Shown here piece after piece: positions 1,531 to 44,512 of a stretch of 64,000 nucleotides of DNA (its first letter is position 1; every line of letters starts with the position of its first letter). Position numbers and translations under genes: made by a program. Location: the NCBI GenBank assembly GCA_041581135.1, contig JBFGCM010000002.1, positions 7,307-71,306 on the forward strand, read 5' to 3'. The notes under the pieces are model-generated. The model did not search any database, was not told the origin of the DNA, and worked only from the letters and a program-made list of their open reading frames with translations. The stretch comes from Acidimicrobiia bacterium (GTDB taxonomy: Bacteria; Actinomycetota; Acidimicrobiia; Spongiisociales; UBA5794).

Positions 1531-2175
1531 GTGGACACCCAAGCCCGAGCGCTGACCCGACGAGCCGCGGTCGTCATCGCGTTGCTGGCATCCGCCTATG
1601 TGGCCGCCCAACTCCTCGCCGACATCTCGAGCCTCAAGATCGTCGACATCGCCGGCTTCTCCATGGACGGCGGAACCCTCATCTATCCCATCACCTTCAC
1701 CATCCGGGATCTCATCCACAAGACGGCGGGCAAGCACGTCGCCAAAGTGATGATCTTCGCCGCCGCCGCCATCAACCTCTTCATGGCGGGCCTGTTCTGG
1801 GTGGTGGACCGCCTCCCCGCCGATCCCGACGGCGGCGTGCCCACCGAGTTCTTCGGTGACGTGCTGAGCCCGGTATGGCGCATCGTCTTCGCCTCGATCA
1901 TCGCCGAGGTGGTGGCGGAGCTGATCGACACCGAGGTGTACTCGAGCTGGGTTCGACGCTTCGGCGATCGCCTCCAGTGGGGTCGGGTGTTGTCGTCGAA
2001 CGCCGTAGCGATTCCCATCGATTCGGTGGTGTTCGCCGTGGTCGCCTTTGGCGGTGTGCTCCCGACTTCGGTCGTCGCCGAGATCGTCTTCACCAACATC
2101 ATCGTGAAGGGCATCGTGACCATCCTCTCGATACCCCTCATCTACACGGTGCGACCCCAGCCGCTGGTCGAGTGA
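1531..2175 (+). CDS. YhhQ/VUT-family membrane transporter (queuosine-precursor preQ0/preQ1 transporter family, COG1738)
   Basis: The IYPITFTIRDLIHK motif and multi-TM hydrophobic profile are typical of YhhQ/DUF165. GTG start at 1531. Confidence 0.7.
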   Translation: MDTQARALTRRAAVVIALLASAYVAAQLLADISSLKIVDIAGFSMDGGTLIYPITFTIRDLIHKTAGKHVAKVMIFAAAAINLFMAGLFWVVDRLPADPDGGVPTEFFGDVLSPVWRIVFASIIAEVVAELIDTEVYSSWVRRFGDRLQWGRVLSSNAVAIPIDSVVFAVVAFGGVLPTSVVAEIVFTNIIVKGIVTILSIPLIYTVRPQPLVE

Positions 2176-2198
2176 CGGCTCCCGGAGACCCAGGCGAG

Positions 2199-2699
2199 GT
2201 GACGATCCGTCCGGCCGTGGTCGCAGACGCCCCCCAGCTGGCCGCCGTTCATTTCCACGCCTGGCAGGAGGCCTACCGCGGTCTGGTGCCGCCGGAGATC
2301 ATCTCGCCGCTCGACGACCAAAGGATCGGCCGGTGGCAGCGGGCGCTCGAGACCCCCCGCCCCAGAACCACCCTCGTCGTCGCCGAACGTCAGGGGCAGG
2401 TGATCGGCTTCGCCGGCACACAACGGTCGCCGAATGGACTGGAGCTGCAGACGATGTATGTCCACCCCGATCACTGGAGCACCGGAGCCGGACGGGCCTT
2501 GATGCTGCACGTGTTCGCCGACTGGGCACGCGCCGGCATCGACCGTGCGCACCTTTGGGTGCTGGTCACCAACGACCGGGCCCGACGGTTCTATGAGGGC
2601 TTCGGGTGGCGCAGCAGCGGCGAGGAGAACGTGGTGGCCGTCGGCGGGACCGAGTTGCCTGTGATCCGGTACGACATCGACATCGCCACGGCCCGGTAG
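2199..2699 (+). CDS. GNAT family N-acetyltransferase. An alternative GTG start at 2172 would overlap the yhhQ stop
   Basis: C-terminal part of ORF 1875..2699: VTIRPAVVADAPQLAAVHFHAWQEAYRG...QVIGFAG...RGRGAGRALM...FYEGFGW is a GNAT fold signature. The upstream part of that ORF overlaps yhhQ in another frame. Confidence 0.65.
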   Translation: MTIRPAVVADAPQLAAVHFHAWQEAYRGLVPPEIISPLDDQRIGRWQRALETPRPRTTLVVAERQGQVIGFAGTQRSPNGLELQTMYVHPDHWSTGAGRALMLHVFADWARAGIDRAHLWVLVTNDRARRFYEGFGWRSSGEENVVAVGGTELPVIRYDIDIATAR

Positions 2700-2713
2700 C
2701 CGCTTCGCTCGCC

Positions 2714-3454
2714 TCAGGCGGTGCGGACGTCGAAGCCGCGGGGCAGCTCCAGCCGATGGGCGCGCAGAAGCGCGTCGTCGCCGAGGATGTCGGCGATCGG
2801 CCCGTCGGCCACGATCTTGCCGGCGTCGATGATCAAGGCCCGCTGACACAGCTCCAAGGCATAGGGCAGATCGTGGGTCACCATCATCATGGTGATGTCG
2901 AGCCCGGTGAGGATCTCCGCAAGTTCACGACGTGCCTTCGGGTCGAGATTCGACGAGGGCTCGTCCAGCACCAGGATCTCGGGATGCATCGCCAGCACCG
3001 TGGCGACCGCCACGCGGCGCCGCTGCCCGAAGCTGAGGTGATGAGGTGCTCGCTCGGCCTGGTCGGCCATTCCGACCGCTTCGAGCGCATCCGTCACCCG
3101 ACGCTCCAGCTCGTCACCCTCGATGCCGAAGTTGGCCGGACCGAAGGCGACGTCCTCCCGCACCGTCGGCATGAACAGCTGGTCGTCGGGATCCTGGAAC
3201 ACCAGCCCGGTGCGCCGCCTGATCTCTCGCAGGCTGTCTTCGTCGAGATCGAGCCCGGCGACCGACACCGTGCCGGACGACCCGCGCAGGATGCCGTTGA
3301 GATGCAGCACCAACGTGGTCTTGCCGGCGCCGTTGGGACCCAGCAGCGCCACCCGCTCGCCCGGGTGGATGTGGAAGTCCACCGAGTCCAGGGCGTGATA
3401 GCCGTCCGGATACGAGAACGACAGCTCCTCGACGGCGAGCGCCGGCGTGCTCAT
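2714..3454 (-). CDS. cbiO: ECF/CbiO-type ABC ATPase of the Ni/Co uptake system
   Basis: Walker A GPNGAGKTT, the LSFGQRRRV signature and Walker B LVLDEP are present. ATG at 3454 (MSTPALAVEELSFSY) overlaps the cbiQ stop. Confidence 0.8.
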   Translation of the reverse strand: MSTPALAVEELSFSYPDGYHALDSVDFHIHPGERVALLGPNGAGKTTLVLHLNGILRGSSGTVSVAGLDLDEDSLREIRRRTGLVFQDPDDQLFMPTVREDVAFGPANFGIEGDELERRVTDALEAVGMADQAERAPHHLSFGQRRRVAVATVLAMHPEILVLDEPSSNLDPKARRELAEILTGLDITMMMVTHDLPYALELCQRALIIDAGKIVADGPIADILGDDALLRAHRLELPRGFDVRTA

Positions 3455-28832: not shown

Positions 28833-28903
28833 GCGGATGTAGTTCAATGGTAGAACACAAGCTTCCCAAGCTTGGAATGGGGGTTCGATTCCCCTCATCC
28901 GCT
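28833..28903 (+). tRNA. tRNA-Gly (anticodon CCC)
   Basis: GCGGATGTAGTTCAATGGTAGAACACAAGCTTCCCAAGCTTGGAATGGGGGTTCGATTCCCCTCATCCGCT. Cloverleaf with anticodon loop TTCCCAA and T-loop GGTTCGATTCC. Confidence 0.9.
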
Positions 28904-29016
28904 CGCCAGCTCGCCGCTCTCGCAGCGCATCCGGCGCCTGCGGGCTCGATGACCCTGCCGGTGGGCTGTACCGCCATTCCAGGGTCTCGCGCCACCCGTC
29001 TGGCTACCATCCCGTC

Positions 29017-29577
29017 GTGATCTTTTCCGACCGCACCATCCGCGAGCAGATCGCCGGCGGTGCCATCCTCATCGACCCGTACGACCCGGCCATGGTGCAA
29101 CCGTCCAGCGTCGACATCCGTTGTGACGCGGTGTTCCGGGTCTTCGAGAACCACAAGTACCCGCTGATCGACCCGAAGGCTCCCCAGGAGGACCTGACCA
29201 CTTCCGTCGAGGCTCATCCCGAGGAGCCGTTCATCCTGCACCCGGGCGAGTTCGTGCTCGGGTCCACGCTCGAGACCATCGGCCTGGCCGACGACATCGT
29301 GGCGCGGCTCGAAGGCAAGTCGAGCCTGGGGCGGCTGGGCTTGCTGATCCATTCGACCGCCGGGTTCATCGACCCCGGCTTCAAGGGCCAGGTGACGCTG
29401 GAGCTGTCGAATGTGGCGAATCTCCCCATCGCCATCTACCCCGGGATGAAGATCGGTCAGATCTCGTTCTATCGGCTGAGTACCCCTGCGGAACACCCAT
29501 ACGGATCACCCGAGGCAGGATCGAAGTACCAGGGTCAGAGCGGTCCCACCCCGAGTAGGGTCCATCGGGATTTCTGA
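29017..29577 (+). CDS. dcd: dCTP deaminase (dUTPase superfamily)
   Basis: GTG start, then IFSDRTIRE...PSSVDIRCD...[26 protein letters not shown]. Confidence 0.85.
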
Positions 29578-29697: not shown

Positions 29698-31107
29698 ATG
29701 GGCACTCGTATGACTGAACTCCAACCCGACCGCGTCCGCCGCCCATGGATGTGGCCCGTCGCCCTGCTGTGGATCGGCCTGCTGGCCGCCGCCATCGTGT
29801 GGGGGGTCGACCGCTTCCAGACCGACATCTCAGAACGCGCCCAGGAGACGTTGCAGGCCAACGGCTTCGCCGGGCTCGACGTGGACGTCGACGGACGAGA
29901 CCTCCACGTGATGGGCGCCGATGCCGCGAACGAGGCTCGCATCGAGGCTCTGCTCGAGGATCTCGACGGAGTCCGCACGGTGGTGTTCGACGACGTGACC
30001 GCCGGCGGACCGACCACCACTCAGGCACCCAGCTCGGTAACCTCGACACAAGCGCCACCTCCCACCACCGAGCCACCACCGCAAACGACCACCACTGAGG
30101 CGCCGCCGGCATCCACCACCACCACCACGGCGGCGCCTCAGGTGGCTTTCGTGGAGGCCACCCTGCAGAACGGACTGTTCACGTTGCGCGGCGTGGTTCC
30201 CGACGAAGAGACCGCCACCGCGCTCGTCACCGCCGCCAACGTGGCCTACGCCCCGTTCGTGACGAACGAGCTGGCGATCGATCCCAACGTGCAACCCAAC
30301 CCGCTCCTGGCCGCCGCACCCGTCGGAATCGGGCTGATCCCGATGATCACCGAAGGCACCGTCCGCGTGGAGAGCGACGGTGTCGAGCTGTCCGGCGTCT
30401 CGCCGCAGGCCGAGTACTCGGCTGCGTTCGAGCAGACGATCGCCGCCGTCTTCGGCACCGCCAACGTCACCAGCGACATCGCGGTGACCAACCTGGCGCC
30501 GCCGCTGTTCGACGCCACCCGTACGGCAGGTCGCCTGGTGCTGTCCGGCAACATTCCGTCGGAGCGGTTCCGGGAGATCGTGGTCGGCGGCGCCGTCGCC
30601 GCATACGGAGCGGAGAACGTGGAAGACCAGATGGTGGTCCAGGACGGACTCTACGAGTCGTTCTGGATGTACACGATGCCAGGCGTGTTCCAACTGTTCG
30701 CTCCGTTCCCCGACTACAACATCCACGTCGAGAACGCCATCACGACCGGGGCGATGCAGAACGGCGCCAACTTCGCCTATGGCAGCGCTGAGCTGAGCGA
30801 GCAGACCCAAGCGGTGCTGACCGTCGCCGTCGCGCTGCTGTCTCGGGACCGCTCTCTCGGACTACGCGTCGAGGGCCACACCGATTCGGATGGTTCGTCG
30901 AGCTTCAACCAGGGTCTCAGCGAACGGCGCGCCGGCAACGCGGCCGCGTTCGTCATCGCCGCCGGTATCGATCCGTCCCGGGTGCTCGCGGTCGGGTTCG
31001 GCGAGGAACAGCCGATCGCCACCAACGCCACGGCGGAGGGACGAGCGCAGAACCGGCGGGTCGAGTTCTTCTTCGGTCCCGTTCAGCTGATCGTCGCCGA
31101 CCAGTAG
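29698..31107 (+). CDS. OmpA/MotB-domain peptidoglycan-associated protein with an N-terminal TM helix, Thr/Pro linker and BON-like repeats
   Basis: The C-terminal block ...SAELSEQTQAVLTVAVALLSRDRSLGLRVEGHTDSDGSSSFNQGLSERRAGNAAAFVIAAGIDPSRV is a canonical OmpA-like domain. Confidence 0.75.
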   Translation: MGTRMTELQPDRVRRPWMWPVALLWIGLLAAAIVWGVDRFQTDISERAQETLQANGFAGLDVDVDGRDLHVMGADAANEARIEALLEDLDGVRTVVFDDVTAGGPTTTQAPSSVTSTQAPPPTTEPPPQTTTTEAPPASTTTTTAAPQVAFVEATLQNGLFTLRGVVPDEETATALVTAANVAYAPFVTNELAIDPNVQPNPLLAAAPVGIGLIPMITEGTVRVESDGVELSGVSPQAEYSAAFEQTIAAVFGTANVTSDIAVTNLAPPLFDATRTAGRLVLSGNIPSERFREIVVGGAVAAYGAENVEDQMVVQDGLYESFWMYTMPGVFQLFAPFPDYNIHVENAITTGAMQNGANFAYGSAELSEQTQAVLTVAVALLSRDRSLGLRVEGHTDSDGSSSFNQGLSERRAGNAAAFVIAAGIDPSRVLAVGFGEEQPIATNATAEGRAQNRRVEFFFGPVQLIVADQ

Positions 31108-32662: not shown

Positions 32663-32902
32663 ATGGGACGATCGCGGCCCGTCCAGCCCATGCCGGACGA
32701 TGTGCTGGCCGCGCTGCGCGACCGTGGCGTGTTGGCGGACTACGACGCCCGTCCGTTCTACCAACGCAACGACTACCTCTCGTGGATCGGCCGCGCCAAG
32801 CGGGACGACACGAGACGCAAGCGAATCGCCCAGATGCTCGACGAGTTGGAGCAGGGCGGCCTGTACATGCGCATGGAGCATCCACCTAGCCGCAAGGCGT
32901 GA
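32663..32902 (+). CDS. YdeI/OmpD-associated (DUF1801-like) small protein
   Basis: 79 aa, ...DARPFYQRNDYLSWIGRAKRDDTRRKRIAQMLDEL. Confidence 0.5.
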   Translation: MGRSRPVQPMPDDVLAALRDRGVLADYDARPFYQRNDYLSWIGRAKRDDTRRKRIAQMLDELEQGGLYMRMEHPPSRKA

Positions 32903-32972
32903 CCAGAATCCATGCGGATCGAGGCCACACGGCGGTCCGGCATGCCATACGCTTGAGGTGCCGCCCCCACTC

Positions 32973-33590
32973 ATGGAGGTCGAGTTGCCCAATCGTCGTC
33001 ATCGCTGCCGGTCGGCCGTGGCGTTGGGCGCGCTGCTCCTGATCGTCACGGCCTGCGGACCCTCGGGGTCGGGCAATCTGGTGACCGAGCACCGCGACGT
33101 TGCTCCATTCACGGCGATCTCGGTGAGTGAGGGCATCGAGGTGGAGCTGGTGGTCGATCCCACCGAGTCCCCCACCGTCGCCGTCACGTTCGACGACAAC
33201 CTGCTCGAACGGGTGGTCACCGAAGTGCGCGGCGGCACGCTGTTCGTCGAGTTCGCCGGCTCCGTCCGGATCATCGGCGGCGGCCGCAATGTCCGGGTCA
33301 CCGCCCAGAGTCTCCACGACATCGAGGTGAGTGGCGGCGCCGCGCTCATCGGCACCGGAGCCGCCAACTCCTACCGACTGAGCGCCTCGGGAGGTTCGAG
33401 CGTCGACCTGAGAGCCCTGACTGCGGCCGACGTGGAGATGGACGCCAGCGGCGGGTCCAGCGTCGTGGTGTACGCCTCGGCATCGGCACAGGGCGACGCC
33501 TCCGGCGGATCCAGCATCACCGTGTACGGCGAACCGCCTCAGGTGAACATCGACACCAGCGGGGGCTCAGGCGTCGACGTCGCCGAGTGA
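32973..33590 (+). CDS. Lipoprotein with a DUF2807/GIN-like beta-helical domain
   Basis: Signal peptide + lipobox (LLLIVTACG), then repetitive SGG(S/A)...V(D/E) beta-solenoid-like segments. Confidence 0.6.
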   Translation: MEVELPNRRHRCRSAVALGALLLIVTACGPSGSGNLVTEHRDVAPFTAISVSEGIEVELVVDPTESPTVAVTFDDNLLERVVTEVRGGTLFVEFAGSVRIIGGGRNVRVTAQSLHDIEVSGGAALIGTGAANSYRLSASGGSSVDLRALTAADVEMDASGGSSVVVYASASAQGDASGGSSITVYGEPPQVNIDTSGGSGVDVAE

Positions 33591-34316
33591 GCTACTCGAG
33601 CCCTTCGAAGCCAACGCACCGGTGCCTTCGGCGAGCCACTCCGCCAGCTGATCACGAGGTGGGCTCAACAAGACGCCATCCTTGACGAAGAAGGCACGAT
33701 CGACCCAGTCCAGCGCCGCAGGATCGTGACTCGCCATCACCACCGCGGTGCCGTTGTGCGCCACCTTCTGGAGGAGGCCCAGCACCCCGGCGCCGGTGCC
33801 CGTGTCCAGTTCTCCGGTGGGCTCGTCTGCGATGAGATACGCGGGGGCATGCACGAGGGCACGGGCGATCGACACCCGCTGCTGCTCGCCACCCGACAGC
33901 TCGTCGGGACGGTGCTTGGCGCGTCCGTCCAGCTCCACGGCGTTCAACGCGGCATGAACCCGATCACGTGAGCCCTTGCCTCCGGAACCGAGCAGCCGCA
34001 GCGCCACCTCGACGTTCTCCGCAGCGGACAACAACGGCAGCAACGAAGCCGACTGGAACACGAAGCCGAGCTTGGTCCGTCGCACCTTGGCGGCGGCACG
34101 CTCGCCGAGGTGATCGACCCGCTCGCCATCGATCCACACCTCTCCGCTGTCGGGTTCCATCAACAACCCGAGCATGTGGAGCATCGACGTCTTCCCCGAC
34201 CCGGACTGGCCGAACAGCGCCACGTACTCCCCCGGCTGGACGCGCATGCTCACGTCGAGGGCACCAACCGCACCGTGCGGATAGCGCTTGGTGACGGATC
34301 GCAGCTCGGCGCTCAT
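33567..34316 (-). CDS. ABC transporter ATP-binding protein (MacB/LolD-type ATPase 2)
   Basis: Walker A GQSGSGKTS, signature LSGGEQQRVSIA, Walker B LIADEPTGELD. Confidence 0.85.
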   Translation of the reverse strand: MSAELRSVTKRYPHGAVGALDVSMRVQPGEYVALFGQSGSGKTSMLHMLGLLMEPDSGEVWIDGERVDHLGERAAAKVRRTKLGFVFQSASLLPLLSAAENVEVALRLLGSGGKGSRDRVHAALNAVELDGRAKHRPDELSGGEQQRVSIARALVHAPAYLIADEPTGELDTGTGAGVLGLLQKVAHNGTAVVMASHDPAALDWVDRAFFVKDGVLLSPPRDQLAEWLAEGTGALASKGSSSSLGDVDA

Positions 34317-35158
34317 GGGGCCTCCCCATCGTGCTCGCTGCCACGGAGAAGAATCCCGTCTTCGGTGAGCTCGGCGTGAGCCCGCTCGTAGATGCCTGCG
34401 GCCAGCAGCATGTCGCGCGGGATGCGCACCGATCCGGCAGAATCCACGGCGAGCAACTCGCGCGTCATGCCGCGCTGGGTCTCGGTGAGCACCCGCCCGT
34501 CGGCGAGCCTGACCACCCGATCACTCCGGTTGGCGAGGGCAACCTCGTGAGTCACCACGAGCACGCTCAGCCCGCCGTCATGACAGAGCCGTCGCAGCAG
34601 TTCGTAGATCTCCAACGAGGTCTCGGTGTCCAGCTCCCCGGTCGGCTCATCGGCCAGCAGCAACCTGGGCGCCATCGCGAGGGCGACACACAACGCCAGG
34701 CGCTGCTGCTCGCCCCCGGAGAGATCGTGCACGGTGGCGAACGCATGGTTCCGCATGCCGGTGGCTTCGAGCAGCGCCAGCGCACGTTGGCGGCGTTTGC
34801 GCCTACCCACCCCAGCGAGCAGCATCGGCAGCTCGACGTTGGCGATCGCCTTCAGATACGGAAGCAGGTTCCGGGTGAAGTCCTGCCAGAGGAACCCCAC
34901 CGAGCCGCGGTAGTGCCGGGTGAGACCCGCCTGGGTCATCTCGGTGAGATCGGCACCGGACACCATGACCTGCCCCGCAGACGGCAGCTCCAAGCCGGCG
35001 AGGATCTTGAGCAACGTCGACTTGCCGGCACCGGACTTGCCCACCACCGACACGAACTCGCCCACTTCCATGGTGAAGTCGAGTCCCTGCAGGGCGACCA
35101 CCTCCAGCGCCCCCTGCTTGTGGATCTTGATGAGGTTGCTGCACTCGATGATCGGCAT
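34313..35158 (-). CDS. ABC transporter ATP-binding protein (MacB/LolD-type ATPase 1)
   Basis: Walker A GKSGAGKST, signature LSGGEQQRLAL, Walker B LLADEPTGELD. Confidence 0.85.
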   Translation of the reverse strand: MPIIECSNLIKIHKQGALEVVALQGLDFTMEVGEFVSVVGKSGAGKSTLLKILAGLELPSAGQVMVSGADLTEMTQAGLTRHYRGSVGFLWQDFTRNLLPYLKAIANVELPMLLAGVGRRKRRQRALALLEATGMRNHAFATVHDLSGGEQQRLALCVALAMAPRLLLADEPTGELDTETSLEIYELLRRLCHDGGLSVLVVTHEVALANRSDRVVRLADGRVLTETQRGMTRELLAVDSAGSVRIPRDMLLAAGIYERAHAELTEDGILLRGSEHDGEAP

Positions 35159-38100
35159 CAGCGCTCCACCTCCCTCAGGACCTCACTCATCCTGGTAGCG
35201 GACACCCGGCGCGTGGCCCACACCACCGAGGCGATGAGGAGCGCGCCGACCACGGCCACGTATCCCGCCAGCATGGCGGGCTCGATCTCGAGCAAGACCT
35301 TCGGGATGATCTCGTCCGCAGTCTCACCGAGCTGGAGGAAGGGGATCATCAGCCACATCAATCCGATGCCGGCCGAGACCCCGACGATCGCTCCCAAGCC
35401 GAGGACGGCGAGCTGCTCGACCGCGAACGTGGAGGCCACTCCGCTACGACCAAAGCCGAGGGCACGCAACACGCCCATCTCGCGGGCGCGCCTCGCCACT
35501 GCGAGCAGCACGTAACCGGTGACGCCGGCCAGTGCCAGGATGACGCCGGTGAGCGCACCGACGAAGAGGATCGCCACGAGGCCGACCTGCACCGGACGGC
35601 TGGAGAAGTCGGCGGCGACACTCCGCACGGTGACCGTCTGTTCGATCTCGTCCCCGTAGGTGGCGGCGAGCTGCCGGGCCACGGCATCAGAATCGGTGGC
35701 ATTCGCCCATATCTCGTCGGGCAGCAGGGGTCGCGCCGGTGTGGTGGCGAAGCTCCACGTCGGGGTGGTGTTGACCCAGTGGTTGAAGGCGTCGAGGTCG
35801 ATCACCATCGCCCCCTGGGTGGAGCGGCTGACCATCGTCGGCACGAGGTCGACAAGACCCGCCATCACCCCGGGGATGCTCAGCGTGTCCACCCCGAACG
35901 CGGCTTCGCTGCCGACAGAGAGTCCGGCGATGGCGGCCGCTTCGCGATCGAGCAGCACCCGGATGGGTTCGGGAGCTTTGGCGAGGTGCGGCACGGACGC
36001 CAGTCGAGTGCGGGTGGGAAGCACCCACATGTCCACCTCCCCGGCACCGACCAGCGGCGAGGTGGCGAGCTCCTGGGCACTGGGAGGTGTCGCCCCGGGG
36101 GGCAGCTCGGAGTAGTACTCCTCGACGGCGAAGTCCGCATCGGGCGCCCGGTCGCCCGATCTGATCTCCAGCCCGGCAGTGGCCGTGAGCTCGGCGGCGA
36201 TCTCACTACCGAGGTTCGCCTCGCCGCCGGCCGTCTCGGCCCTCCAGTCTTGGACGAGCACTCGGGACTGGCGCAAGGTGGTGGTACCCGCCGGCTGGTC
36301 GAGCTCCAGCCACATGGCCACCATCGTCACCGGTGCGGGGATCTCTCCGTCGGGCCGGTCCACCACCGACGACGTGGTGGTCAAGGGTATCCGCACGGTC
36401 CGCCACTCGGTGTCGGTGAAGCTCTGATCGGCGGCCAGCGTCCACGGGAGGCCGTTGGCGTCGAACACCCTGATCAGCAGCCGCAGCGAAGTGTCAGGGG
36501 CGTTGTCACCAAGCGTCTCCTGCTCCGCCCAGGGACGGGGTACGACGATGCCATCGACGGCGATGGCCGAGGTGGCGGCGAGCTCGACACCCACATCGGG
36601 AGGGGCGCCGTCGGGACGCAGGTTGCCCAACAGCTCCGCTGCGGTGTCGGCACCGAAGTCGCCCCGCCACTTCACCACCTGCGCGAAGTCGTCGGGCCGA
36701 ACGGCCAGGAGCTCGGCGCGGCGGGACGACAGACGAGGGGCACCGGTGGAGCGGAACACCGCCGCGGTGTCGATGGTCTCGGGTGCATCGACGAAGCCGA
36801 TGCCAGGGGCCACCATCCGGACGTCGGCACCGGCCGCATACTCGGCCCGGTCCTGGAACGATGCCTCCAAGGTGAACGCGTAGGTGAGGGCAAACGCACC
36901 GAACCCCGTCGTCAGCCACACCAACAGGGCCAGCCTGCCGTACGGAATGGGGTTGCGGCCCAGGTGCCAACCCGGAAGCGACATCGCCAGGCCGGGCAGC
37001 TTGGTCATCAGCCAACCGACGAAGCGCAGCAGGAAGGGCAGGACGCGGAGCAGCAGCAGTGCCCCCGCCAGCAGGAAGAGCGCCGGCGCCACGATCGCCA
37101 ACGTGTTGAGACGGGCCTCTCCGTCTTCGATCACGATGAACCCGGCCTGGGCGAGTTGCACCAAGAGCACCGCGGCCAGGATCACCAGGAACACGTCGAT
37201 GTAGTAGCGCTGCCATACCGACACCCGAGTGGGCCGTGCCGCCAGACTCCGCAACTCCAGCACCGAGCGCCGGGCGAAGGGGAGCACGGCCAGGCCCATC
37301 GTGACGAAGGTCAACACGGCGCCGGCGACGATGAACGGGGCCAGCGACTGGGTCTGGGCGACCTCGAGCGGCTCCCCGCCGGTCAAGTCGGACAACGGTG
37401 GCACTCGGCCCGTGAGTCCGACGAGGAATCTGGCCACCAGCGGGGCCAGAAAGGCCGCCAGCACGGCGATGAGCGCCGACTGGGCGAGGTGGATGCCCAC
37501 GGTCTGCCAGGAGCTGGCGCCGCGGGTACGGAGGAGTGCCATCTCCGGTGCCTCGCGTTCGAGGGTCAAGGCGGCCGTATAGATGAGGAAGTACAGCGCC
37601 CCGCCGACGATGAGCGTGAGCATGGCGAGGATCGGTCCGGCGAACACCGCGGACCTGGTGTCGAACCGGTCCAAGAGGAGCGGCAGGTTCGTGTCGGTAG
37701 CGATACCCAGATCCCTGGCGACATCCGCCGAGTAGTTGTTGATGGCACTGCGGACCGGGTCGATGCCCTCCAGGTCCAGACTGTCGCGGTCGAATGCCAT
37801 GAACCAGCGCTGGGTCGCATCAACTCCGCTGAATCCCTTGGTCTCCCGCAGCCAGGGGTCGGTATCGGCGACCCGGCTGCGCAATCCGGACCACACGTCG
37901 AACGTCTCCTGCGGGACGTAGATCAGGCCATTCGGCGCGGTCACGCCCCAGAACACCGACCCTGGGTCTGTGGCCCGTGCCACCGCAGCCACCTCGATGA
38001 CCTCGAACTGATCCGGCCCACCGGCGAAGGGCCGAATGATGGAGGTGTCGCCCGGCGCCAACCCGGTGAGGCGAGCGAGGTCTTCGCCGATGGCGATGCG

Positions 38101-38691
38101 GAGCCGGCCGCTCCCGGCCAGGTCCGCATCAGTGCCGGGCCACTCGCCGGCGATGACCTCCAACCGGTCAACAATGTCGGGGGCGCTGACGATACGGCTC
38201 TGGGTGGCCTCCTGCGGGGGGGTGGGCCAGGGAGCTGTCGGTAGCTCGAGCTCGTCGAGAGTGCCCGTCGCTTGCGCTTCGGTCACCAATCGCTCCACCT
38301 CGGCCTGCCACTCGAACGCCAGCGCTTCCCAATCGACGGCGCCACCGGTGGGGATGAACAGGAACTCTCGACTCGACGTGCGCTCCTCAGCCGGCGCGTA
38401 CCAGGGTCGTAGTCGCTCCTCGGCGGTGACGACCGAGGCGCGGGCAGCCGCCGCTTGATCGGCCTCATAGGCCGTGGTGGTGAGTCGAGAGGCCACGTCG
38501 ACATCGGCGGCCGGTGCGTTGCGGACGGTGAACAGCAGGTCGATGGCAGCCACCGAGGCGTCGTAGAGCGGCACGATGACGAGCAGGGCGGTCACCAGGG
38601 TCGCGCCGAGGAACGATCCGAGCAGGATGCCACGCTTCGCCCACAGGCGTCGCACCACGAGCCCGAGGTAGGTCGTGAGCCTCAGTAACAC
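35158..38691 (-). CDS. Very large (1177 aa) FtsX/MacB-like ABC permease with duplicated FtsX modules and large extracytoplasmic domains
   Basis: Multiple TM clusters separated by long soluble segments. The C-terminal FtsX-like 4-TM bundle includes ...GVLRALGFGRSGV.... Co-oriented and translationally overlapped with the two ATPase genes. Confidence 0.7.
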   Translation of the reverse strand: MLLRLTTYLGLVVRRLWAKRGILLGSFLGATLVTALLVIVPLYDASVAAIDLLFTVRNAPAADVDVASRLTTTAYEADQAAAARASVVTAEERLRPWYAPAEERTSSREFLFIPTGGAVDWEALAFEWQAEVERLVTEAQATGTLDELELPTAPWPTPPQEATQSRIVSAPDIVDRLEVIAGEWPGTDADLAGSGRLRIAIGEDLARLTGLAPGDTSIIRPFAGGPDQFEVIEVAAVARATDPGSVFWGVTAPNGLIYVPQETFDVWSGLRSRVADTDPWLRETKGFSGVDATQRWFMAFDRDSLDLEGIDPVRSAINNYSADVARDLGIATDTNLPLLLDRFDTRSAVFAGPILAMLTLIVGGALYFLIYTAALTLEREAPEMALLRTRGASSWQTVGIHLAQSALIAVLAAFLAPLVARFLVGLTGRVPPLSDLTGGEPLEVAQTQSLAPFIVAGAVLTFVTMGLAVLPFARRSVLELRSLAARPTRVSVWQRYYIDVFLVILAAVLLVQLAQAGFIVIEDGEARLNTLAIVAPALFLLAGALLLLRVLPFLLRFVGWLMTKLPGLAMSLPGWHLGRNPIPYGRLALLVWLTTGFGAFALTYAFTLEASFQDRAEYAAGADVRMVAPGIGFVDAPETIDTAAVFRSTGAPRLSSRRAELLAVRPDDFAQVVKWRGDFGADTAAELLGNLRPDGAPPDVGVELAATSAIAVDGIVVPRPWAEQETLGDNAPDTSLRLLIRVFDANGLPWTLAADQSFTDTEWRTVRIPLTTTSSVVDRPDGEIPAPVTMVAMWLELDQPAGTTTLRQSRVLVQDWRAETAGGEANLGSEIAAELTATAGLEIRSGDRAPDADFAVEEYYSELPPGATPPSAQELATSPLVGAGEVDMWVLPTRTRLASVPHLAKAPEPIRVLLDREAAAIAGLSVGSEAAFGVDTLSIPGVMAGLVDLVPTMVSRSTQGAMVIDLDAFNHWVNTTPTWSFATTPARPLLPDEIWANATDSDAVARQLAATYGDEIEQTVTVRSVAADFSSRPVQVGLVAILFVGALTGVILALAGVTGYVLLAVARRAREMGVLRALGFGRSGVASTFAVEQLAVLGLGAIVGVSAGIGLMWLMIPFLQLGETADEIIPKVLLEIEPAMLAGYVAVVGALLIASVVWATRRVSATRMSEVLREVER

Positions 38692-38694
38692 CGT

Positions 38695-39618
38695 TTGCCT
38701 CCGGACCGCTACTTCAGCGGCCTCAGTAGGCTACCTGGGCATGAGTCCCACCGTCCGGATCGCGTGAACGCAACGGGGGGAGCCGCCGTCGGAGTCGTGG
38801 CCGGCGCTCTGCTGGCCATCGCCGGGCTCTGGCTGGGCGCACGCGGATCCGATGCGCCGGCCCTGCTGCCGGGATCCACGACCACCACGACGCCTGCCGC
38901 CCTGACGGCCGTGCCATGGTTCGACGCCAACGAGGTCGTGCTCGGATCGAGCATTCTGATACCGACGGAGCTCACGGTCGACGGCACCGAGGTGACCCTC
39001 GATTTCCAGATGGAAGACCTCGCTCCCCCCACGCTCGGCACCGAGGTCGACTTCGACACCTGGCCGTCCTTCCGGCAGCGGCCCAACACCGAGTTCAACC
39101 TGGTGGCACCCATCGCATGGACGCTCACCACGAGCGGCGGGGTGGAGATCCCCGGTAGCACCGCCAACGTCCGAGCCACCACGGCCCGCTTCTCGGTTCC
39201 CGAGGAGTTCGCGGCTTCAGACATCGGCGAAATCCGGCTGGACACCTACCGGCAGCGTGTGCCGATGGTCTACGACATCGACATCTCGTCCGGCGATCGA
39301 AGTGCCAACGTGCTCGACGACACGGTGAGCATCTCCTTGGTAGACGTCGTGGAACAAGCAACCGGAACGGTCTACCGATTCCAGGTGGACCACGACCCGG
39401 CTGCGTTCATCGCCACCGGCTTGTTGATCGGCGACGATGCGCTGCTCTTCGGCAGGGGTCCGGGTTGGGTGAGCTTCGGCATCAACGAGGACACCCTCCA
39501 GCTCACCCACGAGTCGCCGACCCCCCTCGATGTGGTGCCCATCCGGGTGGTAACGAGCGCGTGGCTCGACATCTCTCGACCCCAGCCGATCCCGATTGGA
39601 GGTCTGCGCGGCGCATGA
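38695..39618 (+). CDS. Hypothetical membrane-anchored protein (N-terminal TM, poly-Thr linker, ~250-aa extracytoplasmic domain)
   Basis: TTG at 38695, or GTG at 38767. Divergent from the giant permease. No recognisable family. Confidence 0.5.
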   Translation: MPPDRYFSGLSRLPGHESHRPDRVNATGGAAVGVVAGALLAIAGLWLGARGSDAPALLPGSTTTTTPAALTAVPWFDANEVVLGSSILIPTELTVDGTEVTLDFQMEDLAPPTLGTEVDFDTWPSFRQRPNTEFNLVAPIAWTLTTSGGVEIPGSTANVRATTARFSVPEEFAASDIGEIRLDTYRQRVPMVYDIDISSGDRSANVLDDTVSISLVDVVEQATGTVYRFQVDHDPAAFIATGLLIGDDALLFGRGPGWVSFGINEDTLQLTHESPTPLDVVPIRVVTSAWLDISRPQPIPIGGLRGA

Positions 39619-40631
39619 GCGACGGCGACGCTTTCAAGGAGCTGCTGCAATCTCCGGTCGAGCCGAAGCGAGAACGCCGAACGCACCCGGATCCGGACGG
39701 CCGGCCACCGGGCACCGTGTGGGCGGCGCTCGCCGGCCTCCTCGTCGGTGGTCTCGTGGTGCTTGCCGGCTACTGGCTGGCCGACGGCGGCGACGCCACG
39801 GCCATGCCCGAGGTGACCACGACGACGTCGACCGAGCCCGTCGTGGCCCCACCAGCCGACATCGACGCGTTCCCGCCGGGGTACGTCGCAGTCAACGACC
39901 GAAGCGCGGTGCGTGTGGAACGGGTGCTCCTGCGTCCCGACGAGGCCATCGTGTCGATGACCGTTGCGGTGCGGCGTGGTCTCGACCCCGAAGCCACTGC
40001 GGGGTTCTGGGGCGGCACGTGGGAGCTCCTGACGGGCGATGGCGTCGCCATCCCATCGGAGGCGGAGGCGTTCGATCCGCTCGCCAAGGGTGCCTTCAGC
40101 GTGCGCTTCCCCGGAAGCTTCACCGCAAACGACCTCGAGGGCATCCGGCTGACCGGCGAGGCGTTGCGCACCACGATGGCGCTGGAGACCAGCATGGCCG
40201 ATCAACCCCTGCCGTTCGCCGAGCCGGAGAGCGATCGATTCGACCTCGACGGCAGCGTCGACCTGGTGATCGACACGATCGACCTGCAGCTGGAAGGTGG
40301 GCTCATCGAATGGCGCTTCGAGGGTGACGACCGGGTACAAGGATCGGTGTTGCCCACGGTGTCGCTCTGGACGCCGACGACGCCATCGGGCTTCCCGGGC
40401 GTCATGCCGGTGCGACACTTCAGCACGATCGCATCGGTGTTCGGCACCACGGTACCGGCGCCGTTCCCGCTGCATGGAGACATGCTGGTGTTGGACCCCA
40501 CCGAGATCAGCGAACCGGGCTCGATCAACCGCATCGAGATCGACTGGGCGGTGACCTGGTTCAACTACATCGACGCCGACGTCGAGATCGCGCTCGGCGA
40601 CGCCCCGGTGGTCGTTGTCGACTCCGGCTGA
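39617..40631 (+). CDS. Hypothetical membrane-anchored protein with the same architecture as the upstream gene (TM + TTTTST linker + extracytoplasmic domain)
   Basis: ATG at 39617 overlaps the upstream stop (ATGA). Similar layout and weak sequence resemblance to 38695..39618. Confidence 0.55.
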
Positions 40632-40635
40632 GCGC

Positions 40636-41721
40636 TCAGCCCACCCCATCCAGCAGAAGCTCGTTGGCCCGGAAGCACCGCACCTCGGTGGCGTCCACCA
40701 TGACCGGTTCGGGGCGCTCCGTGCGGCAGCGATCGACGACATAGGGGCAGCGGGGCGAGTAGGCGCAGCCTTCGGGCAGGTCGTCGAGCTCGGGCGCATC
40801 GCCCTCGATGGGCTTCAACCGCTCTCTGAAGCCCGGCATCGAGTTGAGCAGACCCTCGGTGTATGGGTGCTTCGGCACGTGGAAGATGTCCTCCACCGGA
40901 CCCAACTCGACGATCTTGCCGGCGTACACGACGCCGACCCGGTCCGCCATGGCGGCGACACGAGCAAGGTCGTGGGTGACCAAGATCATCGCCATTCCCC
41001 GTTTCGCCCGAAGGTCGTCGATGAGTGACGCCACCGCCGATGCCACGGTGGCGTCGAGGCCCGACAGCGGCTCGTCGGCGAGCAACAGCTTGGGGTCGGA
41101 CAGCAACGCGGCCGCCAGCATCGCCCGCTGCGCCTCACCGCGGGACATCTGGTACGAGAACGAGAAGAACTTGCGGCGCTTGGTGAGCCGCACCTCGCCC
41201 AGGGCGTCGAGGACCCGCTGGCGTACCTCGTCCTCGGTGAGCTCGGTGTGAGCCTCGAGCACCTCGCCACTCTGCTCACCGATCATCTGGGTGGGATCCC
41301 ACGCCGCAACCGCATCCTGGAACAGCACACCGATCCCCGTGCCCATGATCTCCCGCCACTCCGCGTCCTTCAACTCGCCCAACACCTGGGTGGCGTGCGA
41401 CGCCTTCTTGGCGCCCTTGCGAGGCACCACCCGCCCGGCGAAGGTGGTCTGCCCTGCAATGGCCTTGACGCCATGGGGCAGCAACCCGACGCCGCCGAGC
41501 AGCATCAACGTCTTGCCGGACCCCGATTCGCCCACCAGAGCGAGCGTCTCGCCGGCGTTCACCGAGAAGGAGACATCGGAGATGAGCTCCACCCAGCCGT
41601 CGGACTCCTCGGGATCACGTCCCATCCAGGTCTGCCACCGGCTGCGCTTCGGCGGAGCCTCGCCGGGCCGGCCGAACGCGGCCACCGAGAGGCCTTTGAC
41701 CTCATAGAGCGGCTGGGGCAC
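40636..41721 (-). CDS. Orphan OppD/DppD-type oligopeptide ABC ATPase with a C-terminal oligo_HPY domain and an unusual ~25-aa insertion in the N-terminal region
   Basis: GTG at 41721 preceded by GAGGAGGTGG. Walker A GESGSGKT, signature LSGLDATVASA..., C-terminal ...HPYTEGLLNS...CPYVVDRC. No cognate permease or substrate-binding protein genes are adjacent. Confidence 0.7.
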   Translation of the reverse strand: MPQPLYEVKGLSVAAFGRPGEAPPKRSRWQTWMGRDPEESDGWVELISDVSFSVNAGETLALVGESGSGKTLMLLGGVGLLPHGVKAIAGQTTFAGRVVPRKGAKKASHATQVLGELKDAEWREIMGTGIGVLFQDAVAAWDPTQMIGEQSGEVLEAHTELTEDEVRQRVLDALGEVRLTKRRKFFSFSYQMSRGEAQRAMLAAALLSDPKLLLADEPLSGLDATVASAVASLIDDLRAKRGMAMILVTHDLARVAAMADRVGVVYAGKIVELGPVEDIFHVPKHPYTEGLLNSMPGFRERLKPIEGDAPELDDLPEGCAYSPRCPYVVDRCRTERPEPVMVDATEVRCFRANELLLDGVG

Positions 41722-42134
41722 CGACCACCTCCTCAGTCGACGGGTCGATCGCAGCGAAGGTGCCAACCTGCCAGCACCAGCGTCACACCGATCCATCCCA
41801 GGCTATCGGGTGCCTCGGGAGGACCGCTCGACGTCGATGAGGATTCAGTGGCCGGGGCGCTGATCTGGTGCACGAGACCGGCGCGATGAGGGGCATGCGG
41901 CCCCGCGACACGGCAACGGCGGACGGGACCCCGGGAGGCTCGCAGCCGCCTCGATCGGGGGAGCACAGGAGGGGGGCTAGTGCGTCGGCGCGAGCCACGA
42001 ATGATCCATCTTCTGGCTCAAGTTGGCGGAGCAATGGCCGATACATGACTCAACAACTCGACCGGTGTTCCACTCCACCCGGATAAACCGGAGGTTCCCT
42101 TCCCTCCGACTCCTCCTCAGTTCATCGGTCGACA

Positions 42135-42166
42135 GGAACGGCCCTTCCGCCACGGAGGGCCGTTCC
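42135..42166 (+). other. Perfect 10-bp hairpin GGAACGGCCC-TTCCGCCACGGA-GGGCCGTTCC in the 5' region of the GNAT gene
   Basis: Seen directly. Lies in a 400-nt intergenic region of lower GC. Confidence 0.5.
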
Positions 42167-42213
42167 GCGTTGCTGGGTACGGTTGTGCTCGCACGCGACG
42201 AGAACGGACCTGC

Positions 42214-43119
42214 ATGGACCTCACCTTCGAGCCCCTTGGGGACGATCACCTCGCCGATGCACTCGCCTTCCTGCGTTCGGCCAATCCGTTCTCACAGCGC
42301 ACGTGGGGATGGGACACAGGCCGGTTCATCGACTGGCGGTGGGGCTCCAACACCCTTCGGTCGGACGACAGCCCCGGCTTCTTCGCCCGTCATGGCGCCG
42401 TCATGCGGTACGAGAGACGCATTGTGGGACTCGTCATCTCCGAGGTCGGCGCCGACGACCACTGCGTCCTCACCGCGCTACCGGACCGATCCCTCCTCGC
42501 CGCTGCGCTCACGTGGCTCATCAACCGCCACGACGGCGACTCGTTGGTGCTCTATCCATCGGATGACGCCGGCTGGGTCCACGGGGTCCTCACCGATCTC
42601 GGGTTCGATCGAGGCGAGGTCGCCGGGCTCGAGTGGGGCTACGACCTGACCACGCTCGACGCCGCCGGCCCCGATCCCGCAGGATTCGTCATCGACACGC
42701 TCTCGCATGATCGGAGCGCCGACTTCGCGGGAATCGACCAATGCCTCGAGGGAGCCTTCGGCGGGATGCGAGATCGGGTCCGAGTCCTGCGCAGCCTCGA
42801 GACCAACCCACTGTTCCGGCCCGAGCTCAACGTCGTGGCTCGCCATCCCGAAGGTCGTATTGCCGCATACTGCCGGGGCACCGTTGACCCCGACTCGGGA
42901 GTCTGTGGCATCGATCCGGTCGCCACGCATCCGGACTTCCAGGGTCGCGGTCTCGGCGCGGCCGTCGTACGGAAGTGCTTCACCACCCAACGCGAACTCG
43001 GTGGCACGACGAGCTACATCGGATCCGCACCTGAGGGCTCACCGGGGAGTCGCCTGTACCGATCCCTCGATCCGATCTCGGTGACGAGCCACTCCACGTG
43101 GACACGACCTGCGAACTGA
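42214..43119 (+). CDS. Tandem-GNAT acetyltransferase family protein (MshD-like architecture)
   Basis: 301 aa. The C-terminal half ...VATHPDFQGRGLGAAVV... is GNAT-like, and the N-terminal half has a degenerate GNAT fold. Confidence 0.55.
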   Translation: MDLTFEPLGDDHLADALAFLRSANPFSQRTWGWDTGRFIDWRWGSNTLRSDDSPGFFARHGAVMRYERRIVGLVISEVGADDHCVLTALPDRSLLAAALTWLINRHDGDSLVLYPSDDAGWVHGVLTDLGFDRGEVAGLEWGYDLTTLDAAGPDPAGFVIDTLSHDRSADFAGIDQCLEGAFGGMRDRVRVLRSLETNPLFRPELNVVARHPEGRIAAYCRGTVDPDSGVCGIDPVATHPDFQGRGLGAAVVRKCFTTQRELGGTTSYIGSAPEGSPGSRLYRSLDPISVTSHSTWTRPAN

Positions 43120-43145: not shown

Positions 43146-43976
43146 CTACGACACGGCGATCAGGATCGTGCCGGTGACCGCCAGCACGGCGGCGGCGATG
43201 TGCCGGCCGGTGACATGCTCCCGGAGCATCCGATACCCGCCGAAGACGCCGATCAATGCTGACGTCTCGCGGACCCCGGCAACCAGGCCGAGCGGTGCCA
43301 GCAGCGCCGCCACCATCACCAGCGCGTAGGCACCCGCCGAACCGATGCCTCCGAACACGACCTCCCTCCACTGCGTGCGAACGTGCCGCACCGCCGACGC
43401 CATACCCCGGCGGACCAGCACCACCGCCGTCCACACGGCGCCGGTGAGCACGAACATGGTGCCGATGTATCGGATGGCTTCGTCACCGGCGCGAACGCCG
43501 GCACCGTCGACGGTGGTGTACGAGGCGATGGCGAGGCCGGTGAGCAGTGCCCAGCCCACGCCGGAGCCCACGCCGGCGGTGAGGGCGATCCCGATGATGC
43601 CCAGCGACACGAGGGCGATGCCCACCCAGCCCAGCGCCGGCACCAGATCTCCGAGCCAGAGAACGCCCCCGACCGCCACCAGCAGCGGCGCCACTCCGCG
43701 GGCGATGGGATAGATGACGGCGAGATCCGCCCGCTCATACGCCGCCACCAGCAGCGATCCGTACACCACATGGAGGATGGTGGTTGCCGCCAGGTAGGGG
43801 GCGGTGACCGGGTCCGGCAGGCCCAGGATCATCAGGACGGGGACGTTCAGGATCGCCGAGCCCAGCGTCACGGCCCAGAACGACAGCACCCGGTCGCGTC
43901 CAGCCTTGACCATGAGATTCCACCCGGCGTGCAACACCGCCGCCGCCAGCGCCAAGACCATCGCCGCGCCCGACAT
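43146..43976 (-). CDS. EamA/DMT-family transporter
   Basis: ATG at 43976 (MSGAAMVLALAAAVLHAGWNLMVK...). Ten-TM duplicated EamA pattern. The upstream part of ORF 43146..44399 is GC-rich, low-complexity antisense sequence. Confidence 0.7.
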   Translation of the reverse strand: MSGAAMVLALAAAVLHAGWNLMVKAGRDRVLSFWAVTLGSAILNVPVLMILGLPDPVTAPYLAATTILHVVYGSLLVAAYERADLAVIYPIARGVAPLLVAVGGVLWLGDLVPALGWVGIALVSLGIIGIALTAGVGSGVGWALLTGLAIASYTTVDGAGVRAGDEAIRYIGTMFVLTGAVWTAVVLVRRGMASAVRHVRTQWREVVFGGIGSAGAYALVMVAALLAPLGLVAGVRETSALIGVFGGYRMLREHVTGRHIAAAVLAVTGTILIAVS

Positions 43977-44068
43977 CACCGCCTCCTCGCCGATCAACGT
44001 AGCGGCTGGCTCATCCGCCGTGGTTTCGAATACGCTGGCGGGGCAACAGAGGGAGGGAGAACGGGCAC

Positions 44069-44512
44069 ATGCAGTCCGACGCCACCAGCGTCGAGCAGTA
44101 CCTCGACGAGCTGCCGGAGGATCGGCGCCACGCCGTCGAGAGGGTGCGTGACGTGATCGTTGCCAACCTCCCCGAGGGCTTCGTAGAGACGATGAACTGG
44201 GGAATGATCTCCTACGAGGTGCCGCTGGAGACGTATCCCGACACCTACAACGGCAAGCCGCTGGGCTATGTCGCACTCGCCTCGCAGAAGAACCACATGG
44301 CGGTCTATCTCTCAGGTGTCTACTCCGACGACGCCCGACGGGATGCCTTCCTCGACTCGTACCGGGCATCGGGCAAGAAGCTCGACGTGGGCAAGTCATG
44401 CGTTCGGTTCAAGAAGCTCGACGATCTGCCGCTCGAACTGATCGGCGAGACCATCGCCTCGACGACCGTCGACGAGTTCGTCACCACGGCCAAAGCTGCG
44501 CGGTCCAGGTGA
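44069..44512 (+). CDS. DUF1801/YdhG-like domain protein
   Basis: 147 aa, ...VETMNWGMISYEVPL...AVYLSGVY.... Confidence 0.55.
   Translation: MQSDATSVEQYLDELPEDRRHAVERVRDVIVANLPEGFVETMNWGMISYEVPLETYPDTYNGKPLGYVALASQKNHMAVYLSGVYSDDARRDAFLDSYRASGKKLDVGKSCVRFKKLDDLPLELIGETIASTTVDEFVTTAKAARSR

Follow-up and report, generated by a model that had tools for sequence, protein, structure and literature searches.

What kind of machine is encoded by a giant permease gene with two ATPase genes behind it, and do the two anchored proteins and the OppD-like ATPase encoded on its other side belong to that machine? The question is raised by a locus in a 64,000-nucleotide (nt) stretch of contig JBFGCM010000002.1 of an Acidimicrobiia bacterium (assembly GCA_041581135.1; G+C content, ∼67%), referred to here as the window. 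A reading of the window made by a model without database searches (the sequence-only reading) had described six open reading frames (ORFs) at this place, and all six were found again, with small coordinate corrections. The locus has the fold and topology of a YbbP-type permease, two coupled and canonical MacB-type nucleotide-binding domains (NBDs), and a class-wide conservation. The reading that we favor, and consider reasonably probable, is that the locus is a class-wide, uncharacterized ATP-binding cassette (ABC) machine of type VII which has the OppD-like ATPase as a regular neighbor and the anchored pair, Anch1 and Anch2, as an optional insert. The features of the locus are as follows.

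35158..38691, minus strand: predicted fused double-FtsX (YbbP-like) type VII ABC permease, 1177 amino acids (aa); from Pfam, hydropathy, an AlphaFold2 (AF2) model, and Foldseek
34313..35158, minus strand: NBD-A, MacB/LolD-type ABC ATPase, 281 aa; from Pfam, NCBIfam, and canonical motifs
34316..34471, minus strand: C-terminal ∼50-aa tail of NBD-A, putative SpoVT/AbrB (MazE-like) swapped-hairpin motif; from a Pfam scan of ortholog tails
33567..34316, minus strand: NBD-B, a second and different ABC ATPase of the MacB/FtsE type, 249 aa; from Pfam, NCBIfam, and motifs
38692..38763, no strand: divergent intergenic region of 72 nt between the permease start and Anch1; subjected to a promoter scan
38764..39618, plus strand: Anch1, anchored protein 1, 284 aa, with a hydrophobic helix (signal-anchor), a Thr-rich linker, and a beta-rich ectodomain
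39615..40631, plus strand: Anch2, anchored protein 2, 338 aa, with a cytoplasmic motif, a transmembrane (TM) helix, a Thr-rich linker, and two predicted beta-sandwich domains
40636..41721, minus strand: OppD-like ABC ATPase of a putative distinct subfamily, 361 aa; from Pfam ABC_tran and oligo_HPY

The TGA stop of the permease gene and the ATG of NBD-A share 1 nt (TGATG), and the genes for NBD-A and NBD-B overlap by ATGA, which bears out the translational coupling of the permease to two ATPases proposed in the sequence-only reading. Anch1 and Anch2 also overlap by ATGA, and the start of Anch2 is at 39615, not at 39617. The start of Anch1 is most likely the GTG at 38764 (284 aa) rather than the TTG at 38695, because this length equals that of an identical deposited protein (P0124; source, NCBI). 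Hence, both start positions of the anchored genes had to be moved, whereas their overlap, common design, paralogy, and lack of a recognized family stood as described. The OppD-like gene is co-oriented with the transporter genes and convergent with Anch2, with 4 nt between the two stops, and its GTG start at 41721 is preceded at 7 nt by GGAGG. No consensus sigma-70 promoter was found in 38692..38763, promoter and terminator scans never rose above the shuffled expectation, and an Rfam scan returned only a tRNA.

The permease and its two ATPases

Three lines of evidence place the permease. First, two FtsX stretches were detected by Pfam and 10 TM segments by hydropathy analysis, and the helices of the AF2 model agree with the latter. 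The model, made from 115 homologs, has a mean predicted local distance difference test score (pLDDT) of 90.5 and a predicted template modeling score (pTM) of 0.83. Ectodomain 1 spans residues ∼44 to 347 between TM1 and TM2, and ectodomain 2 spans residues ∼606 to 1035 between TM7 and TM8, with long flanking helices and, in the model, an extra beta-rich insert around residues 700 to 830 within ectodomain 2. Second, the best Foldseek match of the model in the PDB is Escherichia coli YbbP (9ge6_A; E = 1.6e-14) in a full-length alignment, followed by BceB and then by MacB, LolC/E, YtrF, and HrtB; a profile-to-PDB sequence search matches MacB and YtrF. Third, published YbbP has 10 TM segments, ectodomains between TM1 and TM2 and between TM7 and TM8, coupling helices between TM2 and TM3 and between TM8 and TM9, and a TM5-TM6 linker (PMC12646458). 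Because the layout seen here equals that topology, the protein is predicted from its model to be a YbbP-like fused type VII (MacB/FtsX-superfamily) ABC permease. All the parts expected of such a transporter were found, namely, two 4-TM FtsX modules with linker helices, two ectodomains, and cognate NBDs. In one homolog of 1454 aa (P0106), the permease and an ABC_tran domain form one polypeptide, a Rosetta-stone link between permease and NBD.

Both NBDs contain ABC_tran in Pfam and have LolD, FtsE, and MacB as their top NCBIfam models, and the earlier description of the transporter as an FtsX/MacB-like double permease was upheld by these assignments together with the two FtsX matches. NBD-A and NBD-B share ∼36% identity, and both have the canonical Walker A, Q-loop, LSGGEQQR, Walker B, and H-loop motifs. 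The sequence-only reading considered two ATPases with one fused permease to be an uncommon stoichiometry. This proved mistaken, as two NBDs per complex is the standard number; the unusual trait is the difference between the two NBDs. An NBD homodimer, as in YbbA and BceA, was not found, since two different NBD genes are present in every locus. This difference is a variant feature and does not disqualify the system from superfamily membership.

The ∼50-aa tail of NBD-A is kept among the orthologs, with the motif VD..G.V.IPRDML..AGI......A.V.EDGILL. Of the 22 ortholog tails, 9 matched PF04014 (SpoVT/AbrB; best E = 3.9e-5) and 2 matched MraZ, while the tail from the window alone was sub-threshold in the Pfam scan. 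A profile of the tail gave spurious matches to "Pizza" repeats in the PDB and a weak one to MraZ (E = 0.05). Because of this poor PDB result, the assignment of the tail to AbrB rests on the Pfam scan of the ortholog tails. SpoVT/AbrB-type domains normally dimerize and often bind DNA, and they are unusual on a MacB-type NBD. The sequence of the tail suggests a dimerization or DNA-binding module that is present on only one of the two NBDs. NBD-B has a tail as well, which is short, conserved, and different from that of NBD-A (..P.R.EL.LWLTEG).

Comparison with known type VII systems

The nearest known system is the type VII ABC transporter-hydrolase complex YbbAP-TesA of E. coli (PDB 9GE6/9GE7; PMC12646458). 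The features shared with it are a single fused 10-TM permease, ectodomains at TM1-TM2 and TM7-TM8, coupling helices at TM2-TM3 and TM8-TM9, and MacB-type NBDs; in addition, the gene of its extracytoplasmic partner, tesA, lies divergently beside the operon. There are also differences. The permease of the window is 1177 aa long compared to 804 aa for YbbP (∼370 residues more), with larger ectodomains and the extra beta-rich insert in the second one, and the identity between the two is ∼12%. There are two different NBD genes here, compared to a YbbA homodimer there, and only the system described here has the AbrB-like tail on NBD-A and a conserved upstream OppD-like ATPase. Finally, no TesA-like hydrolase is present, and the host belongs to a monoderm-type actinobacterial lineage.

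The second-best structural group, BceAB (PDB 7TCG and 8G3A), likewise has a 10-TM fused FtsX-type permease and MacB-type NBDs, but the single large ectodomain of BceB lies between TM7 and TM8, BceA is a homodimer, and the transporter pairs with the BceS/BceR two-component system. The genes examined near the locus of the window included neither a histidine kinase nor a response regulator. MacAB-TolC and LolCDE share the FtsX-type TM fold, the raised extracytoplasmic domains, and the LolD/MacB-type NBDs. LolCDE also has nonidentical TM halves but uses a LolD homodimer. MacB and LolC/E are separate 4-TM polypeptides, in contrast to the fused permease, and MacB requires the HlyD-family adaptor MacA as well as TolC, neither of which is present here. 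The marks of a tripartite pump were therefore missing: there is no HlyD/MacA adaptor, no adaptor-like PDB match for Anch2, and no conserved partner. Thus, the proposed likeness to MacB-type exporters is correct as far as the MacB superfamily (type VII) and the two large ectodomains are concerned, but the nearest relatives are YbbP and then BceB, not tripartite MacB. The suggestion of a secretion or envelope module fared better, in that a cell-envelope role is plausible for the permease and its two NBDs, with two large extracytoplasmic domains. A reading of the locus as a defense system was rejected, as PADLOC gave only generic ABC-ATPase cross-matches and none for the permease or the anchored proteins.

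Distribution and gene neighborhood of the transporter

A search over 5.8 billion proteins found 228 homologs of the permease. The 120 of these that were listed are 50 to 62% identical to it over 92 to 100% of the query, and those among them that are named carry "Acidimicrobiia bacterium" or similar metagenome-assembled genome (MAG) labels. When one genome per GTDB species was scanned, 103 loci were obtained, 80 of which were kept. All 80 come from uncultured MAGs, nearly all of them labeled Acidimicrobiia or Actinomycetota. The contigs of four loci (L028, L030, L037, and L070) bear the labels of Kiloniellales, Saprospiraceae, Acidobacteria, and Gemmatimonadales MAGs. Mis-binning of these contigs is more probable than horizontal transfer, because they agree with the Acidimicrobiia loci in gene order and identity.

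Synteny was determined by tblastn, and the denominators used here are the 63 loci with enough downstream DNA (for the NBDs) or upstream DNA (for the OppD-like gene). Some trends were apparent. First, 63 of 63 loci have NBD-A and NBD-B downstream of the permease, in line with the coupling described above. Second, in 61 of 63 loci the OppD-like gene is found upstream of the permease and in the same orientation, so that the name "orphan" given to it in the sequence-only reading does not apply. The gap between the two genes is 50 to 347 nt (median, 99 nt) in 51 of these 61 loci and contains an insert of 1.1 to 3.5 kb in the other 10. Third, in 35 of the 55 loci informative for this feature, the OppD-like gene is immediately preceded by an EamA-family gene that mostly overlaps it, which suggests translational coupling between the two. 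The ancestral order is (EamA)-OppD-like-permease-NBD-A-NBD-B, all on one strand. Finally, the transporter is found in a conserved core region, rpsF-ssb-rpsR-rplI-dnaB, then the transporter, then glyoxalase and dcd, its usual site being between dnaB and dcd. The dcd gene lies downstream of the transporter in ∼45 loci, and in the window dcd and a tRNA-Gly gene are located ∼4 kb past NBD-B.

An EamA-family gene is also present in the window, at 43146-44399 (minus strand), beyond an opposite-strand GNAT gene (42214-43119), and did not match a hidden Markov model (HMM) made from the EamA genes of the other loci. The stretch that separates the permease from the OppD-like gene is an insertion hot spot (L001, L015, L023, L028, L038, L039, L081, L082, and L056). 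The unrelated genes found there code for DUF2254 membrane proteins, a tannase-like DUF6351 protein (774 aa), a toxin-antitoxin-like pair, a membrane protein resembling adenylate/guanylate cyclases, and further anchored proteins rich in Thr.

The OppD-like ATPase

The OppD-like protein consists of an ABC_tran domain and a C-terminal oligo_HPY domain (Pfam). Its closest matches in the PDB are Mycobacterium tuberculosis OppD (Rv1281c; PDB 8J5Q) and E. coli DppD (PDB 8Z1V), with E values of 1e-80 to 1e-60. Four cysteines in the arrangement C-x5-C-x6-C-x16-C align to the [4Fe-4S] ligand cysteines of these two proteins (PMC12136057). In an alignment of 65 orthologs from the related loci, the four cysteines are conserved, as are Walker A, Walker B (D-E), and the H-loop. 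The ABC signature differs from the usual one. All 65 orthologs have SRG[EQM][AG]QR (SRGEAQR in the window) in place of SGGxxQR, and the D-loop region reads SGLD. Two lineage-variable inserts further set the protein apart from OppD and DppD, one after the first strand and the other, strongly basic (Lys/Arg-rich), before the Q-loop; both are absent in one subclade. A literature search on the signature variants LSRGQ, LSRGE, and LSRGM returned nothing relevant. From its sequence, the protein is a putative Fe-S-type ATPase of a dedicated SRG subfamily.

The sequence-only reading had itself raised the objection that the gene might be a decayed fragment of an opp operon. This was excluded by the intact ORF, the catalytic motifs kept in the 65 orthologs, a good ribosome-binding site, and the invariant signature of its own. 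The gene encodes an intact, specialized paralog that is an "orphan" solely with regard to Opp permeases. A tblastn search found no Opp-type permease (BPD_transp_1-like) in the 64-kb window, and the upstream gene clusters inspected in the related loci had none either except in L001, where two BPD_transp_1 genes lie ∼4 kb upstream of a tandem pair of OppD-like genes. Compared to Opp/Dpp importers, the protein has the domains and the four cysteines but lacks an LSGGQ-type signature and a co-encoded OppB, OppC, or OppA, and has a type VII permease as its constant neighbor. The earlier description of the gene was accurate in the oligo_HPY domain, the insertion after the first strand, and the absence of an Opp permease from the window; the strand, which it left unstated, is minus.

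PhnK of the C-P lyase complex, a distant relative, is also among the PDB sequence matches (E = 1.5e-24). It is a non-transport ABC ATPase of the OppD/NikD lineage and a precedent for the recruitment of such ATPases to non-importer complexes. Tandem duplicates of the OppD-like gene occur in four lineages, with both copies of the SRG type, which suggests a self-contained dimer. In L037, a second OppD-like copy (1870-2867, minus strand) is located upstream of the regular one but is spread over three frames and is apparently a pseudogene.

The anchored pair

Anch1 and Anch2 each have one N-terminal hydrophobic helix followed by a TTTT(T/S) stretch, and neither matched a Pfam or NCBIfam family. BLASTP between the two gave a weak match (E = 0.004), whereas profile-profile comparison (hhalign) gave 97% probability (E = 5e-11) over 187 columns, and the pair are taken on this basis to be true distant paralogs. 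Word-indexed homolog searches returned only two to three matches for Anch1 and Anch2, and an exhaustive HMM search was used instead. With the Anch2 profile, 143 clusters (at 50% identity) were found among 1.84 billion representative proteins, 34 of them at E < 1e-30 and mostly of 300 to 350 aa. None of the family members tested had a Pfam domain. Another member of the Anch family is fused to a Kelch propeller. A metagenome scan with a three-sequence alignment re-found only the organism of L083.

The Anch2 model (pLDDT, 85.4) has a cytoplasmic helix, a TM helix at residues 35 to 57, a disordered Thr-rich linker, and two beta-sandwich domains. The short cytoplasmic N terminus carries a motif conserved in the family, MSDxD.F.ELL.SP.E. 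A Foldseek search of the model against the PDB found nothing below an E value of 1e-3; a likeness to MATH/SPOP (E = 4.6e-3; target-normalized TM-score, ∼0.47) was set aside as generic beta-sandwich similarity. Several proteins of 485 to 593 aa have an N-terminal half like Anch1 and a C-terminal half like Anch2, and the existence of such fusions argues that the two act together.

The anchored pair is located beside the permease in only 5 of 63 loci (L024, L058, L033, L056, and L078). In all five it is encoded on the strand opposite to the permease and next to the permease start; where the OppD-like gene is present, the pair lies between that gene and the permease. In a neighbor-joining tree of the permease, the five fall in one major clade, where they are interspersed with loci that have no pair; for example, L045, the sister of L033, lacks it. 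Since the pair is absent from most loci and the OppD-like gene is nearly constant, the supposed orphan ATPase is the conserved element and the supposed partners are the variable one.

The same picture was obtained from the side of the Anch genes, for which seven contexts were sampled. Two of the seven (the P0140 contig and L094) repeat the arrangement of the window. In L083 and L095, however, the Anch genes lie beside iscS-mnmA, and in L091 they lie beside a different ABC system. In L093, a 593-aa Anch1-Anch2 fusion (5874-8142) with a cytoplasmic N terminus, a TM helix, and both ectodomains overlaps the 3′ end of an extracytoplasmic function (ECF) sigma-factor gene; a second pair of ECF sigma and membrane-protein genes lies just upstream of this fusion. 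Finally, MAG Co_bin.261 has the pair on contig 41 (L089) and a transporter locus without the pair on contig 1 (L021), where the OppD-like gene directly abuts the permease. The anchored pair is thus a mobile or variable two-gene cassette, independent of the core. Rather than a core subunit, it is at most an extracytoplasmic accessory or sensor that is optional and lineage-specific.

The sequence-only reading proposed more, namely, that the anchored proteins stand in for the periplasmic adaptor or partner of a MacB-type exporter and that the five to six genes form one secretion or envelope-remodeling module. Some observations do fit. The divergent 72-nt spacing mirrors that of tesA and ybbAP in E. 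coli, and the position of the pair is identical in the window, L024/L058, L033, L056, L078, the P0140 contig, and L094, even though Anch identity is 28 to 40%. Moreover, the Anch proteins are bitopic with an extracytoplasmic beta-sandwich and would be in the right compartment. Nevertheless, we think this proposal quite unlikely. The pair is missing from 58 of 63 orthologous loci, including the sister of a carrier, and occurs elsewhere beside iscS-mnmA, another ABC system, or an ECF sigma gene. In other lineages the same slot is filled by DUF2254, an adenylate cyclase, a toxin-antitoxin pair, or DUF6351, and the Anch proteins have neither similarity to the membrane fusion protein (MFP)/HlyD group nor a fold or family of the MacA/HlyD type. 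The lack of co-occurrence that the sequence-only reading had named as evidence against itself was found in part, in that the pair stands elsewhere in other genomes and one such genome has its transporter locus without the pair. As replacement partners, then, the anchored proteins find little support.

The L093 context raises another possibility, that the pair is an envelope sensor or signaling module, with anti-sigma-like or ligand-binding ectodomains, that works independently of the transporter and has landed in a permissive slot. The overlap of the 593-aa fusion with the sigma gene is a classic sigma/anti-sigma layout, and the Kelch fusion, the conserved cytoplasmic motif of Anch2, and a nonenzymatic beta-sandwich ectodomain with no more than a weak MATH likeness would all be in keeping with such a role. 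Against this, adjacency to an ECF sigma gene was found only for the L093 fusion, a single case among the contexts sampled, no ECF sigma factor was matched in the window, and no anti-sigma Pfam domain was recognized in any Anch member. We therefore regard a sensor module as unlikely, though deserving of attention.

Proposed mechanism and evidence against it

If the locus is a class-wide type VII machine, as we favor, the following mechanism can be proposed by analogy. One polypeptide would provide both FtsX halves (TM1 to TM4 and TM7 to TM10, linked by TM5 and TM6) and two nonequivalent ectodomains. NBD-A and NBD-B would each dock on one coupling helix to give an asymmetric 1:1:1 complex, and ATP binding at the A/B dimer would zip the stalk helices and move the two ectodomains, as in YbbAP, MacB, LolCDE, and BceAB. 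The machine may then extract or hand on a membrane- or envelope-associated substrate, or drive a partner, at the outer face, and would not pump a solute through the bilayer. The OppD-like protein would be an auxiliary or regulatory ATPase dimer acting with the cluster (the permease and/or the EamA protein). Such a role with the cluster is the most likely one for it, and it is probably not a subunit of an Opp importer. Anch1 and Anch2 would be paralogous bitopic beta-sandwich proteins that work together, their genes lying, in one clade, between the OppD-like gene and the permease but in the opposite orientation.

Several points weigh against this reading. First, mechanotransmission is carried over to this family from the fold only. 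Second, the OppD-like gene is missing from L024 and L058, with none within 8 to 10 kb upstream, and both loci keep the transporter and the anchored pair. Third, the region is generally syntenic, and the adjacency of the OppD-like gene could be inherited gene order without functional coupling. Fourth, this gene often overlaps the EamA gene, yet it is ∼100 nt away from the permease. Fifth, in 10 loci the OppD-like gene and the permease are separated by other genes, several of which are on the opposite strand, as in the window; there at least, the permease must have its own promoter. Finally, the anchored pair occupies the same divergent site in lineages with an Anch identity of ∼30%, in a geometry like that of tesA/ybbAP, and a real partnership of permease and Anch proteins may exist in the pair-bearing clade.

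The third, fourth, and fifth of these points bear on a different view of the OppD-like protein, in which it is functionally unrelated to the transporter and serves as a shared "multitask" ATPase for distant Opp/Dpp permeases or as a partner of the EamA protein. The synteny from rpsF-ssb-rpsR-rplI-dnaB to dcd would account for its position; it overlaps EamA in most of the 35 of 55 loci, compared to the 50 to 347 nt that separate it from the permease; and intervening genes are tolerated before the permease in the window as well as in the 10 loci. Two BPD_transp_1 genes do lie near the tandem pair in L001, and the tandem duplicates in four loci suggest a self-dimer. However, an adjacency in 61 of 63 loci nearly matches that of the transporter's own NBDs and is far above that of any other neighbor, and the invariant SRG signature marks a dedicated subfamily rather than a generic OppD. 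There are no Opp permeases in the window, the upstream clusters checked in other loci are unrelated to Opp, and we know of no transporter of the drug/metabolite transporter (DMT)/EamA type that uses an ABC ATPase. This view is a serious possibility, but we hold it to be somewhat improbable.

The favored reading of the locus can also be extended in the opposite direction. The OppD-like protein would then be a third ATPase of the machine, an auxiliary NBD dimer that senses redox state or nucleotides, regulates the permease or docks on it, and possibly bridges to EamA, in a five-gene hybrid system with three ATPases; the AbrB-type domain of NBD-A could couple the state of the transporter to DNA binding or dimerization. 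This extension is the most doubtful of the readings considered here.

Other features around the locus

The 492-nt noncoding stretch at 41722-42213, between the start of the OppD-like gene and the divergent GNAT gene, is long for a compact genome and contained neither an Rfam match nor a consensus promoter. On the other side of the locus, a gene for a DUF2807 protein (putative adhesin head GIN domain; 32700-33590, plus strand) converges on NBD-B with a 24-nt overlap of the 3′ ends (33567-33590). Beyond it lie genes for a DinB/mycothiol-S-transferase-like protein, an ornithine cyclodeaminase-like protein, and an OmpA-family protein with a BON domain (29698-31107). The tRNA-Gly(CCC) gene (28833-28904, plus strand) is just upstream of the dCTP deaminase gene (28843-29577, plus strand) and partly inside the longest ORF called for it.

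Significance

The type VII systems FtsEX, LolCDE, MacAB, BceAB, and YbbAP each drive a distinct process of the cell envelope. The Acidimicrobiia are mostly uncultured and are abundant in soils, sediments, and waters. A permease family apparently conserved over many Acidimicrobiia-type genomes probably marks an unknown housekeeping function of the envelope. Its fused permease with two different NBDs, the AbrB-like tail on one of them, and an SRG-type OppD paralog with Fe-S cysteines offer handles on the regulation of mechanotransmission, and the beta-sandwich Anch pair represents a new family of ∼140 clusters with no Pfam model. As far as literature searches show, several of the distinguishing features are unreported, and nothing about them contradicts known principles. 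If the OppD-like protein were indeed a third ATPase, the Acidimicrobiia would run a previously unseen hybrid envelope system.

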